Shown here: positions 5,252-47,020 of the stretch, piece after piece
Numbering within the stretch: position 1 is the stretch's first letter
Layout: every line of letters begins with the position of its first letter
From: Nitrospiraceae bacterium
GTDB lineage: Bacteria > Nitrospirota > Nitrospiria > Nitrospirales > Nitrospiraceae
Assembly: GCA_050246315.1 (NCBI GenBank)
Contig: JBFWWG010000004.1
Location: 257,127 to 321,126 of the forward strand
Direction: 5' to 3'
DNA: 64,000 bases
Position numbers and translations under genes: made by a program
The notes under the pieces: model-generated
Databases searched by the model: none
What the model was told of the DNA's origin: nothing
Seen by the model: only the letters and a program-made list of their open reading frames with translations

Positions 5252-6958
5252 CTAGGTATCAAAGGTCAGTGTGCTCGCCCTCATCGTATTCACCTCCGTC
5301 GAGCTGAGATCGGGCGGAGGATTCGTGATGTTCGCCGTCCCATTTCCGGTCATCAACTGATTATTGTTGGTGACATGATTCAGCCCCAACACATGCCCCA
5401 CTTCGTGTCCCAGGGTCCAGATCGTCGCACCTTGCGCCACCACCGCCCCAGGGCGCCCTTGCGGATGGGCCGCGCACCCGTTGTACGGGGGCACGGTGGA
5501 ACGCACAAAGTAGACCACCACATCGCGGCCCCACGCATTGTTGCGATTCCCAAAGAGCTGGGTCTGTTCAGCCGTCACCGTGCCACGCGTACAGCCCCCG
5601 ACATCCACATCGTTGAGGGCCGGCAAGCTGAGCGTCTCGGTACTGACCCGGTGCACGCGAATTCCCACCGACTCATAGACTTGTTGCATCGCCACCACCA
5701 TCCGATCGATCGAAATCGTGGGGTTGGTTAAGACCTTAATATGGAGACGAAGAGTTTGCTCGCCGACCTCAAAGCGGTTGTCCGCCGTGTTCAGCAGCCA
5801 CCCGCCGAACCGCGTGCCGTTCGGCGCCATCATCGGCACAGTAAAGGTATTGCCCGTCAGACGAAAGATGCCCATCCCCCAGGGACTCGTGACCAGGATA
5901 TCTTCCCTCCCGTCGCCAGTGAAGTCCGCCAAACTGTCGAACTGGTTGTCCGCCGTATTCAGCAGCCACCCGCCGAACCGCGTGCCGTTCGGCGCCATCA
6001 TGGGAACCGAAAAGGTGTTGCCGGAGAGTTTCAGGACTCCGACTCCCCAGGGACTGGAGATGAAGATTTCGGCCTTGCCGTCCCCGTCGAAATCCGCTGC
6101 CGGTCCTATGCGGTTGTCGAGCGTATTGAGCAACCAGCCGCCGAACCGCGTTCCATTCGGCGCCATCATCGGAGCGGTCAGAGTACTGCCGTTCAGCTTC
6201 AGCACCCCGATGCCCCAGGGGCTGGTCATGAGCAACTCCGCCTTACCGTCACCGTCCAAATCCACACTGGTCACCAGATGATTGTCCACGGTGTTGAGCA
6301 GCCATCCGCCGAACCGCGTCCCATTCGGAGCCATCATGGGTGCGGTCAACGCACTCCCGCTCAATTTCAGCACGCCGAGGCCCCAGGGACTGGTGATTAG
6401 AATCTCATCCTTCCCGTCTCCATCCATGTCGCCGACAGGGCTAAAGCGGTTATCGGCCGTATTGAGCAACCAGCCTCCAAACCTGGTTCCATTTTCCGCC
6501 ATCATCAGAACCGAGAAGGTATTGCCGCTGAGCTTGAGGATGCCGATCCCCCAGGAACTCGTGACCAGGATCTCCGCCTTTCCATCTCCGTCGAAGTCGC
6601 CCACTGGTCCAAATCGATTGTCCGCCGTGTTCAACAACCATCCTCCGAAGCGGGTTCCGTTCGGGGCCATCATCGGAGCGGTGAGTGTGGTTCCGCTCAA
6701 TTTCAGTACCCCGACACCCCATGGGCTGGTCACAAGCAATTCGGTTTTTCCGTCCCCATCGAAATCAGCCATCAGGTCGAAGCGGTTGTCCCCCGTGTTC
6801 AGGAGCCAGCCCCCGAAACGGGTCCCGTTCGGCGCCATCATCGGAGCGACCAGCGTATTCCCTGACAACTTCAAGATGCCGATGCCCCAGGGGCTCGTGA
6901 CCGGGATCTCCGCCCTTCCATCACCGTCAAAGTCACTTCTCTTTCCAGCCATTGCCAT
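5252..6958 (-). CDS. Seven FG-GAP/VCBS-like repeats (beta-propeller) fused to a metzincin Zn-metallopeptidase
   Basis: Seven ~56-aa repeats DxDGDG..E...SPWG.G.L...MMAPNGTRFGGWLLNT.DN. C-terminal HEVGHVLGLNH and Met-turn QLM. Confidence 0.85.
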   Translation of the reverse strand: MAMAGKRSDFDGDGRAEIPVTSPWGIGILKLSGNTLVAPMMAPNGTRFGGWLLNTGDNRFDLMADFDGDGKTELLVTSPWGVGVLKLSGTTLTAPMMAPNGTRFGGWLLNTADNRFGPVGDFDGDGKAEILVTSSWGIGILKLSGNTFSVLMMAENGTRFGGWLLNTADNRFSPVGDMDGDGKDEILITSPWGLGVLKLSGSALTAPMMAPNGTRFGGWLLNTVDNHLVTSVDLDGDGKAELLMTSPWGIGVLKLNGSTLTAPMMAPNGTRFGGWLLNTLDNRIGPAADFDGDGKAEIFISSPWGVGVLKLSGNTFSVPMMAPNGTRFGGWLLNTADNQFDSLADFTGDGREDILVTSPWGMGIFRLTGNTFTVPMMAPNGTRFGGWLLNTADNRFEVGEQTLRLHIKVLTNPTISIDRMVVAMQQVYESVGIRVHRVSTETLSLPALNDVDVGGCTRGTVTAEQTQLFGNRNNAWGRDVVVYFVRSTVPPYNGCAAHPQGRPGAVVAQGATIWTLGHEVGHVLGLNHVTNNNQLMTGNGTANITNPPPDLSSTEVNTMRASTLTFDT

Positions 6959-7538: not shown

Positions 7539-8497
7539 GGGGTCAGATCTTGTTTTGTGCGTACCGATGAGCTAGACTTAATGGCATGGCCCGCCCGCTT
7601 CGCCTTGAATTTCCGGGGGCGCTGTACCACGTCACCGCTCGGGGGAACGCCCGCCACGCCATCGTCCTCGACGACCAGGACCGGCAGCGGTTTCTCGATG
7701 TGCTGGCACGTGTGGTCGACCACTTTCACCTGCTGCTTCACGCCTATTGCCTGATGGACAACCACTACCATCTGCTGGTGGAAACACCGGAGGCGAATCT
7801 CTCGAGGGCCATGCGCCAGCTCAACGGCGTATATACCCAAGCCTTTAACCGCCGCCACCGGCGAGTGGGCCATGTGCTCCAAGGCCGCTTCAAGGCCATT
7901 GTGGTGGACCGGGACAGCTATCTGCTGGAACTGTGCCGGTACGTGGTCCTCAATCCGGTGCGCGCGAAAAGTACCCGCAAACCAGAGACGTATGCATGGT
8001 CCAGCTACCGGGCCACAGCTGGCCTCGCCGCCACGCCACCGTTTCTGGCCGTGGATTGGCTGCTCTCCCAATTCGGCCGCCAGCGCCTGGCCGCTCAGCG
8101 AAAGTATCGGACCTTCGTCGCCGAGGGCATAGGGCAGGGCTCCCCGTGGGAGCATGTGCAGGGGCAGGTGCTGCTCGGGAGCGAGCGGTTCATCGACCGA
8201 CTTCGGGTGGGGTTACAGGACAAGCGTGCCCTTCAGGAGATTCCCCGAGCGCAACGATTTGCCGCCCGGCCGAAGCTCAGCCACCTGTTTTCCGTCCGAC
8301 TCGGCACCGACCGCACGCGCCGCAACGAGGTCATCCGTCGTGCCCACGTGGACCACGGCTACAGCTTGTCCGAGATCGGGCAGGCGGTGGGGTTGCACTA
8401 TTCGACCATCAGCCGGATCGTGAATCGGCAGGCCACCGATAATGCACATCGCAAGACCCGACCCCGTGATGATAATGCACATAACAAGACCTGACCC
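7539..8497 (+). mobile_element. IR-bounded HUH/Y1 element 1
   Basis: 21-bp inverted repeats at 7540-7560 and 8477-8497 (19/21 match) enclosing a single Y1 gene. Confidence 0.75.
7586..8494 (+). CDS. HUH Y1 transposase-like nuclease (RAYT-like) with C-terminal HTH
   Basis: MARPLR..YHVTARGN, HUH motif LMDNHYHLL, catalytic RYVVLNPVRA, WSSY, and HTH YSLSEIGQAVGLHYSTISRIV. Confidence 0.9.
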   Translation: MARPLRLEFPGALYHVTARGNARHAIVLDDQDRQRFLDVLARVVDHFHLLLHAYCLMDNHYHLLVETPEANLSRAMRQLNGVYTQAFNRRHRRVGHVLQGRFKAIVVDRDSYLLELCRYVVLNPVRAKSTRKPETYAWSSYRATAGLAATPPFLAVDWLLSQFGRQRLAAQRKYRTFVAEGIGQGSPWEHVQGQVLLGSERFIDRLRVGLQDKRALQEIPRAQRFAARPKLSHLFSVRLGTDRTRRNEVIRRAHVDHGYSLSEIGQAVGLHYSTISRIVNRQATDNAHRKTRPRDDNAHNKT

Positions 8498-8607
8498 TTA
8501 GATGATGGCACTAGAAGGCACCTTGCCTGCATTTGACAATCGCCGCCTGAAGTACAGAAAGCAGGATCGACGCGTAACATAGGCTGCGGTGCCTAATGCC
8601 ATCAGGA

Positions 8608-24979: not shown

Positions 24980-24986
24980 GGGGAAG

Positions 24987-25087
24987 TGCTCAGTGCTGGA
25001 TGCTGAGTGCTGAGTGCTCAGTGCTGAGTATGATCAGAGTTGATTCGTCCATTGATCGCCTTCCGGCTCAGCACTCCGGACTCAGCA
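24987..25087. repeat. TGCTGAG heptamer array with an inverted CTCAGCA arm
   Basis: Six units at exact 7-nt period (24987-25028), inverted units at 25067-25087. Confidence 0.8.
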
Positions 25088-32738: not shown

Positions 32739-32815
32739 TGCTGAGTGCTGGGTGCTGAGCGGAACTCGATGAGCAGCGAACCAATCCGTCAAGACCCAGC
32801 ACTCAGAACTCAGCA
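32739..32815. repeat. TGCTGAG heptamer hairpin
   Basis: Three units at 32739-32759 and three inverted units at 32795-32815. Confidence 0.75.
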
Positions 32816-32838
32816 CTAACTAATGGTGGAGAGGAAGA

Positions 32839-43460: not shown

Positions 43461-44561
43461 ATGGCCGATCTGGAGCTACGCAATCTCACGAAACGCTTCG
43501 GCGAACAGACGATCCTCCAAAACATCTCGCTACGCGTGGCAGACGGCAGTTTCACGATCCTGTTGGGGCCGTCCGGCTGCGGAAAGTCGACCGTGCTCCG
43601 GATCATCGCCGGATTAGAACCCCAGACCGACGGGCAAGTCTTCATCGGCAACCGGTTGGTCGATGGGCTTTCTCCCAAGGACCGGGATATCGCGATGGTC
43701 TTTCAACACTATGCCCTCTATCCCCACCTGACGGTGCGGGAGAATCTGTCCTTTGGACTCAAGATGCGAGGCGAGCCGCGCGGCGTGATCGAGCCCCGCA
43801 TCGAGGAGGCCGCGCAGTTGCTGGAAATCCATTCTCTACTGGACCGCAAGCCCAAGGACTTATCCGGAGGCCAACGGCAACGAGTGGCGATGGGCCGGGC
43901 GATCGTCCGCCAGCCGAAACTCTTTCTCTTCGACGAGCCGCTGTCCAATCTCGACGCCAAGCTCCGCAGTTCCATGCGAATCGAGCTCAAGCGGTTGCAC
44001 CAGCGGTTGGGGGCCACGATGATCTACGTCACGCACGACCAGGTCGAAGCCATGACCCTGGGCGATACGATCGTCGTGATGGAAAAAGGCCGCATCCGGC
44101 AGGTCGATCCACCCGGGCGCATCTATACCACGCCCGCCGATCCCTTTGTCGCGGGATTCATCGGCACTCCCCCGATGAACCTCCTGGAAGGCTCGCTACA
44201 ACATCAGGGCTCGCACTGGACCCTTCAGACCGACTCGATGACGATCCCGATTCCACTGGTGAAGGGGCCGACTCCGATCGGACGGATCTCTCGCGTCGTC
44301 TTGGGCATCCGCCCCGAGGACCTGCGACTCGACAAGAGTGGCGAACCGGCCACCGAGATCGAGGCCCAGGTCGAGCTGGTGGAAGACTTGGGCTCCGACC
44401 TCATTCTGCACCTGTCGATCGGCCCTCATCGACTGATCATGCGCGCGCAGCCGGGCCGTTGCCCAGCCGAAGGCACGACGATTCCACTCTATTTGCCCCA
44501 CGACAAACTGCACCTCTTCATCGACGACCGCCGCGCCGACTGGGCCTATGCACGATGTTGA
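43461..44561 (+). CDS. Carbohydrate ABC ATPase (MalK-like)
   Basis: GPSGCGKST, LSGGQRQR, DEPLSNLD, YVTHDQ and TOBE region. Confidence 0.92.
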   Translation: MADLELRNLTKRFGEQTILQNISLRVADGSFTILLGPSGCGKSTVLRIIAGLEPQTDGQVFIGNRLVDGLSPKDRDIAMVFQHYALYPHLTVRENLSFGLKMRGEPRGVIEPRIEEAAQLLEIHSLLDRKPKDLSGGQRQRVAMGRAIVRQPKLFLFDEPLSNLDAKLRSSMRIELKRLHQRLGATMIYVTHDQVEAMTLGDTIVVMEKGRIRQVDPPGRIYTTPADPFVAGFIGTPPMNLLEGSLQHQGSHWTLQTDSMTIPIPLVKGPTPIGRISRVVLGIRPEDLRLDKSGEPATEIEAQVELVEDLGSDLILHLSIGPHRLIMRAQPGRCPAEGTTIPLYLPHDKLHLFIDDRRADWAYARC

Positions 44562-44610
44562 ATGTTGAAAAAGGCCGCCAGCTTTGTTCTCGCATCGCTC
44601 AGAGGCTCAA
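44551..44610. mobile_element. Truncated MITE family B end
   Basis: ATGTTGAAAAAGGCCGCCAGCTTTGTTCTCGCATCGCTCAGAGGCTCAA matches the reverse complement of the right end of 422-622 and stops abruptly. Confidence 0.75.
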
Positions 44611-44618
44611 TGTCGTCC

Positions 44619-44719
44619 GTGAACGGCGGGGGTCACGTGACCGGTGACCGGGGTCAGTGAACGGGGTCAGGGGTCAGTGAACGGGGTCACAGTGAACGGG
44701 GTCACAGTGAATGGGGTCA
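44619..44719. repeat. Irregular tandem array of (GTGAAC)GGGGTCA
   Basis: GGGGTCA at 44629, 44650, 44663, 44670, 44683, 44698, 44713. Confidence 0.9.
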
Positions 44720-45731
44720 GATCTTGACTTTGACATCTGATAACTTCGCGAGCTGCACCGCCCAGCGCCGATCCGCCGCCAACTGCCGCTCCACTGCGCT
44801 CACCCGCCGACTGACGGCACTGTACGTCACACCCATCCGGCGCGCAATCGCAAGTAAGCTCTCCCCCGCCCACCGGCGTAACCCATAGAGCGCCACTTGA
44901 CGCGCTTCGCTCGGCCGCCGTGTCGGCCGCACGAGGTCCGTCACCCGCAGACCATAATGCTGCGCCACCCGCTCCAGTACAGTCTCTGGACGCAACCAGC
45001 ACGGCCGCCGTTGCGCTCGCGGGATTTCGCTTTCGCTGCCTCGGGATGTCCGGTGCCGCTGCACCCGCCGAACGAACGCCTCCCCTCCCAGATAGACCTG
45101 CCCTACGACCTGCTCCCACGGCTGCCCCTGGTGCTGGATCCCCTCGGCTACGAACGCGCGATACTTCGCCTGCGCCGCGCCCCGCCGCAAGCCAAACTGC
45201 TCCAGCACCCAGTCCACTGTCAGCCACGGGGGCGCCGTCATCAGCCCTGCCGTCGCCCGGTAGCTGCTCCAGCGGTACGCCTGCGGAGTGGATACAACCC
45301 GCGCCCGAACGGGATTGAGCACCACATACCGGCACAGTTCCAAAAGATAGGCCTCCTTCTCTACCACGATCGCCTTAAACCGTCCGTGAAACAGGTGCCC
45401 CACCCGGCGATGCCGTTGGTTGAACCTCTGGGTATAGACGCCGTTCAGATGCCGCAGGGCCTGGGAGAGATTCGGAGAGGGGGTTTCCAGCAGGAGGTGG
45501 TAGTGGTTGTCCATCAAGACCCAGGCATGGCACTGCACCCGATAGTGCTCGACCATGGCCGCGAGCGTGTCGACGAAGCGGGCGCGATCCGTGTCATCTC
45601 GCACGATCGCCTTGCGCTCGTTGCCCCGGGCGGTGACATGATAGACGCCACCGGCAAAGGTAAGTCGTAACGGCCGGGCCATGATGCGCTCAGGGTAGAC
45701 CCATCAATTGCATAATTCAAGGCATGACCCC
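44713..45731 (-). mobile_element. IR-bounded HUH/Y1 element 2
   Basis: Ends GGGGTCAGATCTTG (44713-44726) and CAAGGCATGACCCC (45718-45731). Confidence 0.7.
44717..45682 (-). CDS. HUH Y1 transposase-like nuclease (RAYT-like) with DnaA-C-like HTH
   Basis: LMDNHYHLL, RYVVLNPVRA, WSSY. C-terminal ARQVALY...SLLAIARRMGVTYSAVSR. Confidence 0.9.
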   Translation of the reverse strand: MARPLRLTFAGGVYHVTARGNERKAIVRDDTDRARFVDTLAAMVEHYRVQCHAWVLMDNHYHLLLETPSPNLSQALRHLNGVYTQRFNQRHRRVGHLFHGRFKAIVVEKEAYLLELCRYVVLNPVRARVVSTPQAYRWSSYRATAGLMTAPPWLTVDWVLEQFGLRRGAAQAKYRAFVAEGIQHQGQPWEQVVGQVYLGGEAFVRRVQRHRTSRGSESEIPRAQRRPCWLRPETVLERVAQHYGLRVTDLVRPTRRPSEARQVALYGLRRWAGESLLAIARRMGVTYSAVSRRVSAVERQLAADRRWAVQLAKLSDVKVKI

Positions 45732-45818
45732 TGCTACTGTGACCCTGGGAATCGTTCCTCCTCCTTGGCATTGGCTTTCCCCTTCTCGGCATAGTCGGAC
45801 CCTGGGCACACTGAGGCA

Positions 45819-45849
45819 TGAAGCTCCCCCCAGCAAGCTGCGGGGCATC
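45819..45849 (-). mobile_element. Orphan IS200/IS605-like end hairpin
   Basis: Minus strand GATGCCCCGCAGCTTGCTGGGGGGAGCTTCA: a palindrome followed by TTCA. Confidence 0.5.
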
Positions 45850-45954
45850 ACCGAACCAAAAATATTCGGGGTTGTCGGTGCTCTTCGCGGGGTTGCCCTT
45901 GCCGCTGAACGCACTGTTCAACTGCAAAGATCACAAACATCCTGCTAACCTTGC

Positions 45955-45983
45955 TTGCAAACAGCAAAGAGAGTTCGTACAGT
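45955..45983 (+). promoter_or_regulatory. Putative sigma70 promoter
   Basis: TTGCAA-N17-TACAGT upstream of the J-protein gene. Confidence 0.55.
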
Positions 45984-46036
45984 GAGATCGGAATTCGATT
46001 CACGAGCGGGAGATTATCCGCGTTCCCGAACGAGTC

Positions 46037-47020
46037 ATGGCTACGACTCAACGAGATTTCTACGACATCCTGGGCGTTCCGCGCAGCGCGAGCGCCGATG
46101 AGATCAAGAAGGCCTACCGCCGCCTGGCCAGGCAGTACCACCCCGATCTACATACGGGTGCCAAGAAGACCGACATGGAGCGCAAGTTCAAGGAACTCAA
46201 CGAAGCCCATGAGGTGTTGAGCGACCCGGACAAGCGCAAGAAGTACGACCAGTACGGCCATCGGTGGCAGGAAGCCGAGGCCTACGAAAAGGCCCGGCAG
46301 CAGGCCCGCCAATCGGGCGCCGGGGGGATGGGGCAAGACGAAGGATTCGAATATCAATTCGGCGGTGGCGGTGATTTCAGCGATCTCTTCGAATCGTTTT
46401 TCGGCCGGGGCGGGCGTGCCGGGCGACAGGGAGGCCCACGCGGTTCAACGCCAGGACAGGACGCCGAAACCATCGTTCAGCTCTCTCTCCAAGAAGTCCT
46501 CAACGGCACGACGAAGCGTGTCCAGATGATGGAGCAGGGCGCCAACGGACGATTGGAAGCAAAGACGATCGACGTCCGCATTCCGGCCGGTGTGCAGGAC
46601 GGCACCCGAGTCCGGGTGCCGGGAAAAGGCCAGCCCGGATTCAACGGCGGGAAGCGCGGCGATCTCTACCTGCACGTGCACATTCAAGACGACCCCGTCT
46701 TTCGTCGACAGGGCAGCGACATCCACGTGACCCTGCCCGTCTGGCCTTGGGAGGCCGTGCTCGGAGCCGAGGTCACGGCGCCGACGTTGGCCGATCCGGT
46801 CAAGGTCCGTGTGCCGGCCGGGAGCAGAGCCGACAGCAAGCTCCGCCTGAAGGGGAAGGGCCTTCCTACTGCGTCCGGCGGCCATGGCGACCTCTTTTAC
46901 ACCTTGCAAATCGTCGTGTCTTCCTCCCCGCCGGACGACGAGCGAAAACTCTACGAGCAGCTCAACCACCTCCCCCATCTCGACCCCAGAGCGGAACTGA
47001 TCCGCCTCACGCGCCGCTAG
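46037..47020 (+). CDS. DnaJ class B / CbpA-like chaperone
   Basis: J-domain with HPD, G/F region, no Zn fingers, DnaJ_C domain. Confidence 0.92.

Follow-up and report, generated by a model that had tools for sequence, protein, structure and literature searches.

A 64,000-nt stretch of a Nitrospiraceae genome, referred to here as the window, harbors element 2 (E2), a ~1.0-kb single-gene mobile element that spans 44713-45731 and is bounded by ~25-nt terminal inverted repeats starting with (G)GGGTCA. E2 is a TIRtron, and its gene encodes a protein of the TIRYT class. Short tandem repeats that lie outside the ends of such elements, termed stutter below, are the main subject of this analysis. The source genome of the window (G000) is a draft of 4.39 Mb in 30 contigs and was compared with three relatives from the same genus (G001, G002, and G003). 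Coordinates are positions in the window unless a contig (C) is named.

The E2 protein combines two recognizable parts. The N-terminal part of the open reading frame matches Pfam Y1_Tnp (E 7e-12), and the C-terminal part matches Bac_DnaA_C over residues 232-294 (32.3 bits, cut-off 31.5, E 1e-7). A phmmer comparison with PDB sequences aligned residues 234-307 to domain IV of DnaA (2hcb/1l8q, E 1.4e-4); DnaA was the only protein matched, through this tail, and no solved relative of the nuclease domain was found there. The protein passes the NCBIfam model REP_Tyr_transpos (84.5 bits, cut-off 80) and fails transpos_IS200 (NF033573; 19.8 bits, cut-off 55). In a protein alignment of four intact paralogues, the H60-Y-H62 motif and Y119 are invariant; the latter is presumably the catalytic tyrosine, by analogy with related enzymes. 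The gene stops at the TGA with which the terminal TGACCCC begins, so that the stop codon lies inside the inverted-repeat heptamer, as an earlier note on this DNA had observed.

Table 1. Features of E2, its flanks, and the paralogous element 1 in the window
Feature	Positions	Strand	Remarks
TIRYT gene, 321 aa	44717-45682	-	Y1/HUH nuclease N-terminal; DnaA-domain-IV-like helix-turn-helix C-terminal (~residues 232-307)
Right-end terminal inverted repeat (gene 3' end), GGGGTCAG	44713-44737	+	Weight matrix 22.2 bits at C4:301840; stop codon within heptamer
Left-end terminal inverted repeat, GGGGTCATGCCTTGAATTATGCAAT on - strand	45707-45731	-	Weight matrix 28.0 bits at C4:302856; diverged partner of right end; starts 48 nt before ATG
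Stutter array outside right end, six extra GGGGTCA copies	44616-44712	+	Mostly GTGAAC(G)-type spacers
Outer unit at left end: 8-nt spacer and extra GGGTCA copy (TGACCC at 45740-45745, + strand)	45732-45745	-	
Miniature inverted-repeat transposable element (MITE) piece: left ~60 nt of ~135-nt inverted-repeat family	44553-44613	+	29 blastn matches in genome (own site included) and copy alignment
MITE-right-end-like piece, aacatcctgcta	45936-45949	+	Weak similarity
Element 1 (E1), paralogous TIRtron	7539-8506	+	Left repeat from 7539; open reading frame 7586-8494, 302 aa
E1 right end, duplicated as 33-nt tandem unit, 2.1 copies	8438-8506		

The right end of E2 is preceded by an array of its own terminal heptamer. 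GGGGTCA starts on the + strand at 44629, 44650, 44663, 44670, 44683, 44698, and 44713, with spacings of 21, 13, 7, 13, 15, and 15 nt, and a single inverted copy occupies 45725-45731. All of the additional copies listed in the earlier note, with their irregular 7-21-nt spacing, could be located, as could the extra TGACCC beyond the opposite end. The spacer GTGAACG repeats the local flank GTGAACGG (44618-44625) that precedes the outermost heptamer of the array. The heptamer itself is not enriched over the window (14 copies vs 10.7 expected; at least 14 in 21 of 100 shuffles), and the whole genome contains 481 copies, compared with ~844 expected from base composition. Only 11 clusters of at least two GGGGTCA within 60 nt exist in the genome, the E2 array with its seven copies being the largest, and a longer unit, GTGAACGGGGTCA, occurs three times in the genome, each time at the E2 site. 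The left-end repeat of E2 is unique in G000, i.e. there is no second copy that could have served as donor of this odd left end. Folded as single-stranded DNA, the E2 array gives a z of -1.27.

E2 was correctly described beforehand as a diverged paralogue of E1 with the same design: the two proteins share 57-60% identity (E1 frame on the + strand), and both genes are bounded by inverted repeats. The end of E2 on its 3' side is identical to the left end of E1, since the 14-mer GGGGTCAGATCTTG occurs at 7539 and 44713 and nowhere else in the window or in the 4.39-Mb genome. Local duplication is present at all four ends, as had been claimed, in the form of seven heptamers at the right end of E2, one extra copy at its left end, and the 33-nt unit at the right end of E1. 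The left end of E1 is the weak case; it shows only a 7-nt flank repeat, CATATGG, of a kind matched by 6.8% of random windows.

Beyond its own place, the E2 protein has 10 matches in G000 with 36-60% identity, several of them broken. Read in gene orientation, every copy of the family begins with (G)GGGTCA-nnn-CTTG... and ends with ...CAAG-nnn-TGACCC(C). A position weight matrix built from 25 ends (consensus GGGTCAGGTCTTGCAATCAYRCAT; threshold 18 bits) identified 45 ends in G000 at or above the threshold; the ends far outnumber the genes, and many must therefore be solo or belong to small derivatives. The family is mobile, with copies at different sites, polymorphic presence among the four genus members, and deletion derivatives, and the proposal that E2 is something other than a classical insertion sequence did not hold up. 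Three degenerate TIRtron copies lie within 8 kb at C1:499500-509500 (L111), a region mostly without match in the relatives. Two of these three are deletion derivatives of ~470-490 bp that are 95.5% identical and contain internal stops; the cluster possibly marks a hot spot for landing, or else a graveyard.

Stutter was quantified as a direct repeat of at least 9 nt, with a period of 5-25 nt, in the outer 50 nt (plus 7) of an end. It is present at 18 of the 45 ends in G000; the corresponding rate is 0.75% in 20,000 random windows, and no case was seen among 45 inner or 44 far windows. An extra direct copy of the end's own terminal hexamer occurs within 60 nt outside 10 of 44 G000 ends, amounting to 22 copies; the controls for the same 44 ends yielded two copies in inner windows, none in far windows, and one copy in inverted orientation. 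The ends of the unrelated ~135-nt MITE family display stutter in 3 of 71 cases. Conversely, where two GGGTCA copies stand close together in direct orientation on the + strand of G000, the pair is mostly at a TIRtron end (15 of 20 pairs).

The same pattern is found outside the genus. A scan of one genome per species provided 80 related loci from many phyla, 65 of which have inverted ends with an ungapped inverted-repeat score of at least 12 and were kept (3 were dropped for lack of flank and 12 for a lower score); 116 of their 130 ends could be placed. Stutter is present at 38 of these 116 ends, compared with 2 of 116 inner windows and 1 of 108 far windows, so that the survey of homologue flanks suggested in the earlier note did reveal an excess of duplications. 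Extra hexamer copies accompany 28 of the 116 ends vs 2 of 116 inner windows. The two sides behave alike (22 of 61 left ends, 16 of 55 right ends), and one or both ends are stuttered in 30 of 63 loci. The repeated units have periods of 5-24 nt, and 14 of the 38 stuttered ends repeat the flank only, with no extra heptamer. Stutter is thus a general property of TIRtron ends and is specific to them relative to the controls.

Comparison of closely similar copies locates the stutter outside the mobile unit. The two 95.5%-identical C1 derivatives are alike exactly from GGGTCA to TGACCC, while their outer arrays differ: TGACCCC-TTTGTG is found twice beside one, and five heptamers with spacers of the TGACATC type beside the other (spacers CTTTGTG vs TGACATC). 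Similarly, the paralogue L003 has a 98%-identical copy in G002 whose flanks differ, with similarity starting at GGGTCA. The left-end unit of this paralogue is TGACCCCATCAACGCTCGG in G002, present twice and running on into the site-specific flank, and TGACCCCATCAAA in G000, present three times together with an 8-nt unit. The extra copies also track variants of the end motif, namely GTGTCA and GGGTCG in G000 and GGGACA in L085. Stutter is accordingly a tandem re-duplication of the junction between element and flank, consisting of the end heptamer plus 0-15 nt of host flank, and it is formed in place.

These comparisons bear directly on the idea that the arrays predate the element or were built by nesting, either because targets resemble the element's own end or because repeated insertion and loss left solo ends behind. 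IS200-type relatives choose their targets by sequence, and the empty-site sequence of two relatives (CACGAACGGAGGGTTTG) does resemble the outermost flank plus heptamer in G000 (CGTGAACGGCGGGGGTCA). A suitable target would nonetheless need the terminal 7-12 nt of the element followed by the same local flank, in tandem, and a pre-existing target is for this reason not credible. Together with the tracking of end variants, the lack of heptamer enrichment, and the fact that only 5 of the 20 close pairs lie away from TIRtron ends, this makes such an origin distinctly improbable. A palindromic target joining GGGTCA to TGACCC (GGGTCATGACCC) was considered but found no support, as this 12-mer occurs once in the genome and no such empty site was found. 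A search of the relatives for clean empty sites that would define the target and boundaries yielded none: the C1:499.5-509.5 kb cluster was mostly unmatched, the L003 flanks were rearranged, C12 had no match, C16 and C1:235 kb had partial matches, and C6:90271 was polymorphic as a replacement rather than as a clean insertion.

Another candidate, in which the inverted repeat extends outward past the heptamer so that the spacer would be inside the element, was likewise set aside. Only positions -1 to -3 are common to left and right ends, and at least 7 of 10 outer bases are shared by both ends in 5 of 53 loci vs 2.2% of shuffled pairs; an outward extension is true for a minority only. Separately, 6-8 of the 10 outer bases are common to both ends in L033, L036, L037, L052, L071, and L103, as is partly the case in E2.

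The length of the array varies between genomes. G002, in which this region is 96-97% identical to that of G000, carries E2 at the same position, but its array, gtgaacggcgtgaacgggtcgggcggGGGTCA, contains one full and one degenerate copy vs seven in G000. Logan metagenome contigs from four runs belonging to four studies (X3, X7, X10, and X18) were also examined. The G000 form of the array was recovered as a 152-nt contig (44599-44750, no differences) in runs from three other studies. In a short metagenome allele, which contains a total of two heptamers, 20 other letters connect 44628 with 44707. The depths of the long form, the short form, and the element body are 44.5, 38.5, and 79.4 in X3; 26.5, 23.6, and 44.7 in X7; 4.7, 10.5, and 17.6 in X10; and 0, 11.1, and 11.1 in X18. 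In each run the two forms add up to approximately the depth of the body, which is a single contig with 0-2 differences. The G000, G002, and short metagenome forms sit on a nearly invariant element, and at least three array alleles therefore exist. Heterogeneity of array length, which had been named beforehand as a point to check, is thus seen both between G002 and G000 and as two alleles that coexist in metagenome contigs.

The recovery of the same contig also answers the concern that the array might have been created by faulty assembly or sequencing, which arises because short tandem repeats assemble poorly and G000 is a draft. However, the 152-nt contig was assembled identically and independently in the three other studies, and comparable arrays exist in dozens of unrelated public records. 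The array is hence real, and an artefact is vanishingly improbable.

Breakpoints were counted over 157 ends with 63 extra hexamer copies. The stretch of inner repeat that follows the extra hexamer is 0 nt long in 44 of the 63 copies, 1 nt in 8, 2 nt in 7, and at least 4 nt in 4, which is approximately the extension expected by chance. In 32 of the 36 ends with extra copies, every copy ends no more than 2 nt after the hexamer. The outer flank common to the copies, on the other hand, varies from 0 to at least 15 nt. A fixed inner breakpoint after GGGTCA fits a site-specific nick.

The preferred explanation, which is assigned a probability of about one half, is that stutter results from a site-specific nick by the enzyme, short re-synthesis, resealing, and subsequent slippage, the role of the enzyme being one that we infer. 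A single-strand nick by the enzyme would fall at GGGGTCA|GG, where the heptamer meets the core of the repeat, and a host polymerase would then extend or re-copy a short stretch across the junction. Resealing by the enzyme would add one unit, after which ordinary replication slippage could expand or contract the array. Rearrangements beside the ends may stem from the same nicking activity.

The main rival account dispenses with the transposase and lets the arrays arise and change by ordinary replication slippage or unequal exchange, the junction being made slippery by the G-rich heptamer and by a protein-bound or paused end. It suffices for differences in copy number once two units exist, and it accommodates the flank-only repeats and broad range of periods described above as well as the stutter at broken or gene-less copies. 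It is nevertheless rather unlikely, given that the first duplication must arise independently at one third to two fifths of the ends, compared with 0-4% for controls and MITE ends, and that slippage at arbitrary microhomologies does not predict a breakpoint at the border of the hexamer.

The extra heptamers could alternatively be iteron-like binding sites for the enzyme or its DnaA-type helix-turn-helix, selected for the greater amount of protein that they recruit to an end. In some viruses and plasmids, HUH nick sites are accompanied by repeated motifs that bind Rep. What is repeated is the best-conserved portion of the inverted repeat, the copies are direct and adjoin the end, and the tail of the protein is of the type with which DnaA binds repeated boxes, as far as the available text of PMC6006769 goes. 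Most ends lack such copies, though, and the number and spacing are irregular, as in E2. The arrays lie outside the unit that is common to near-identical copies, copy number differs between near-identical strains, and many stutters are flank-only, all of which render selected binding sites improbable.

Several observations weigh against the nick-and-reseal explanation, or at least limit it. Between ~60 and 67% of the ends have no stutter. Stutter is also found at ends without an intact adjoining gene, where either action in trans would be required or the stutter would have to be old. The breakpoint is not absolute, as longer pieces of the repeat are present at 4 of the 36 ends and some larger duplications include it in full (33 nt at the right end of E1, 61 nt at the right end of L003, and cases in L057, L068, and L104). 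Because slippage spreads the unit that was formed first, copies within one array are not independent, and the breakpoint rests on ~36 ends, some of which are related. The two metagenome alleles are several steps apart and may represent two co-occurring strains rather than ongoing change. Finally, the E2 spacer is partly mirrored at its two ends (CAGTGAAT and CAGTAGCA), and a purely local-flank origin does not account for this mirroring; the arms 44684-44704 and 45725-45745 are 21 nt long and 81% complementary, reading GGGTCA-CAGTGAAC-GGGGTCA and GGGTCA-CAGTAGCAG-GGGTCA.

Rearrangements adjoin several of the stuttered ends. The MITE copy next to E2 is cut off directly before the array, as previously described, breaking at ~44613. 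In G001 and G003, which are 88-89% identical, the block 44549-45949 is missing and its place is taken by 46-48 unrelated or diverged nucleotides. In G002, 2.7 kb of ordinary genes separate the left end of E2 from the equivalent of 45746 (G002:C29:16640-19432; L012, L019), and these genes are absent from G000. The left-end repeat and 5' leader of E2 (45683-45745) are completely different in G000 and G002, and the left end in G002 is a near-perfect partner of the right end, with a stutter of its own (TGACCCTTGTTCTGTGTT twice). Next to the left end of L003, which is stuttered, G000 has 1.6 kb directly outside the end (C1:569979-571566; L112 3479-5066) where G002 has 68 nt. The truncated MITE, the 2.7-kb difference, and the swapped left end fit adjacent deletions but resemble the flanks of many insertion sequences. 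The earlier interpretation of E2 as a system that diversifies its flanks by duplication and adjacent deletion consequently stands in part: the arrays are in-place, end-specific junction duplications, and the adjacent rearrangements exist, though such rearrangements are common beside insertion sequences.

A broader proposal is that TIRYT enzymes leave a footprint of their own chemistry, with each abortive cycle of nicking, strand-displacement synthesis, and resealing adding one heptamer-plus-flank unit, so that the ends would become self-made hypervariable minisatellites. This proposal is possible, if tentative. If it is true, cleavage by this class of transposase would take place where the fixed breakpoint lies, and the enzymes would work on inverted-repeat ends instead of using hairpin-guided peel-and-paste as their IS200 relatives do. 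The stutter provides a concrete predicted cleavage position, and the gain of junction units would be a cheap read-out of activity. TIRtrons also create small hypervariable loci with adjoining rearrangements, which matters for strain typing and for the assembly of Nitrospira and other environmental genomes. They are widespread, as 602 of the 615 candidate stretches obtained in one scan encode relatives, and these come from Nitrospirota, several proteobacterial classes, Acidobacteriota, candidate phyla, and others.

The left ends of TIRtrons may in addition contribute to expression of the gene. A scan of 44500-46050 with promoter consensus sequences found none at the left end of E2. Among the relatives, the CTTG(A/C)A of the left repeat can be read as a -35 element, in that a TTG followed by a -10-like hexamer at 16-18 nt is present at 15 of 60 left ends vs 1 of 52 right ends. 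At the left ends of L099, L060, L072, L092, L045, and others, a -35 of TTGCAA or TTGAAA precedes a good -10, and the ATG comes ~6-9 nt after the latter. The start codon is 44-48 nt from GGGTCA in 42 of 60 left ends, making the 48-nt spacing of E2 typical, and this distance implies a leader that is very short or absent. The arrangement suggests leaderless transcripts for many TIRYT genes, as judged from spacing and motifs.

Other repeats in the neighborhood are distinct from the stutter. The MITE family has 71 terminal-arm matches in G000 and many short matches in all three relatives; its consensus starts with TAGCAGGATGTTGAAAAAGTCCGCCAGC, copies are present for example at G000 C4:51922, C6:191071, and C5:59992, many copies start exactly at a TAG, and no transposase was linked to the family here. 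The tandem repeat at 5770-6848, with 6.4 copies at a period of 168 nt and 71% matches, probably encodes a repeat domain. A second heptamer stutter, which has no sequence relationship with GGGGTCA, is formed in the window by short arrays of AGTGCTG/TGCTGAG and its complement CAGCACT at 24985-25029, 32739-32759, and 32797-32817.

E2 was initially put forward as the best candidate for an undescribed system, a claim that fails because the element meets the definition of TIRYTs and TIRtrons. The class was defined, together with a GGGGWSAS motif, by Di Nocera, De Gregorio, and Rocco (2013, BMC Genomics 14:522; PMC3733652). Quentin, Siguier, Chandler, and Fichant (2018; PMC6006769) describe TnpA_REP subclass 2.1 as long proteins with a Bac_DnaA_C or helix-turn-helix tail and no REPs nearby, equate it with the TIRYTs of the 2013 study, and report flanking repeats mostly with GGGG[AT][CG]A[CG]; a C-terminal Bac_DnaA_C, HTH_23, or HTH_28 extension defines subclass 2.1.2, in the portions of the two papers that were available. 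E2 encodes a RAYT-like Y1 protein with the HUH motif and tyrosine, and its ends are terminal inverted repeats instead of REP hairpins. The right end agrees with GGGGWSAS at 8 of 8 positions (GGGGTCAG) and the left end at 7 of 8 (GGGGTCAT). The tail of the protein (Bac_DnaA_C; DnaA domain IV) corresponds to subclass 2.1.2, as judged by domains and not by placement in a tree. E2 is hence an ordinary member of a described class, i.e. a TIRtron of TnpA_REP subclass 2.1.

The literature search found TIRtrons in two sequence surveys only, with no further work and no biochemistry on the class, and a search for the repeat sequence itself matched only unrelated primers. Published TIRtrons, as far as the accessible text of these surveys extends, share with E2 the RAYT-like Y1/HUH protein with a DnaA-type helix-turn-helix, the terminal inverted repeats, the GGGGWSAS motif, a stop codon overlapping the repeat, and repeat copies without a gene. 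Unlike E2, they are described there with whole repeats that occur singly, as dimers, or in groups, and the same text does not mention a hypervariable heptamer-plus-flank stutter at the junction, outside the mobile unit. The stutter, a property that is solid, general, and now quantified, was not found in the accessible parts of PMC3733652 and PMC6006769.

IS200/IS605 elements, such as IS608 and ISDra2 with their TnpA and single-strand peel-and-paste transposition, have the Y1/HUH core in common with E2, and no target-site duplication is evident at the copies compared. They differ in that the ends of E2 are inverted repeats and not same-strand subterminal hairpins, and in the extra DNA-binding domain of its protein. 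Neither the score above the family-model cut-off nor the same-strand subterminal hairpins without terminal inverted repeats that characterize IS200/IS605 are found in E2. Subterminal hairpins as in IS200 or REP systems were sought and rejected, the terminal 40 nt having a folding z of ~0 on both strands (mean z 0.10; n=112 ends from other genomes). With no excess of folding, TIRtron ends are true inverted repeats, and their symmetry implies action on both strands or on double-stranded DNA.

In rolling-circle HUH transposons (IS91/ISCR, Helitrons) and in HUH Rep origins with repeated binding motifs, an HUH nick at the end is followed by DNA synthesis, and read-through or re-initiation gives duplicated or tandem ends and capture of flanks. 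These systems use Y2 or Rep-helicase enzymes of other families and have asymmetric ends, and no evidence for rolling-circle copying of E2 was found here.

RAYT/REP systems (REPtrons, REPINs, and E. coli TnpA_REP) have a related nuclease domain and a gene flanked by its own repeat in inverted orientation. E2 differs from them in having neither a palindromic REP hairpin nor a GTAG tag, and its protein is about twice the length of a RAYT because of the helix-turn-helix tail. Whereas REPtrons have palindromic REP units dispersed at high copy between genes, there is no hairpin excess here, and GGGGTCA is not dispersed in G000, its count being below expectation. Similarly, the REPtron gene is single-copy and vertically inherited, while the E2 gene is multicopy, with the 10 further matches noted above, and the element is mobile and polymorphic in presence. 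A close analogue of the stutter nevertheless exists among these relatives, as REP clusters are reiterated in tandem together with segments of flanking DNA, according to the accessible text of PMC3733652.

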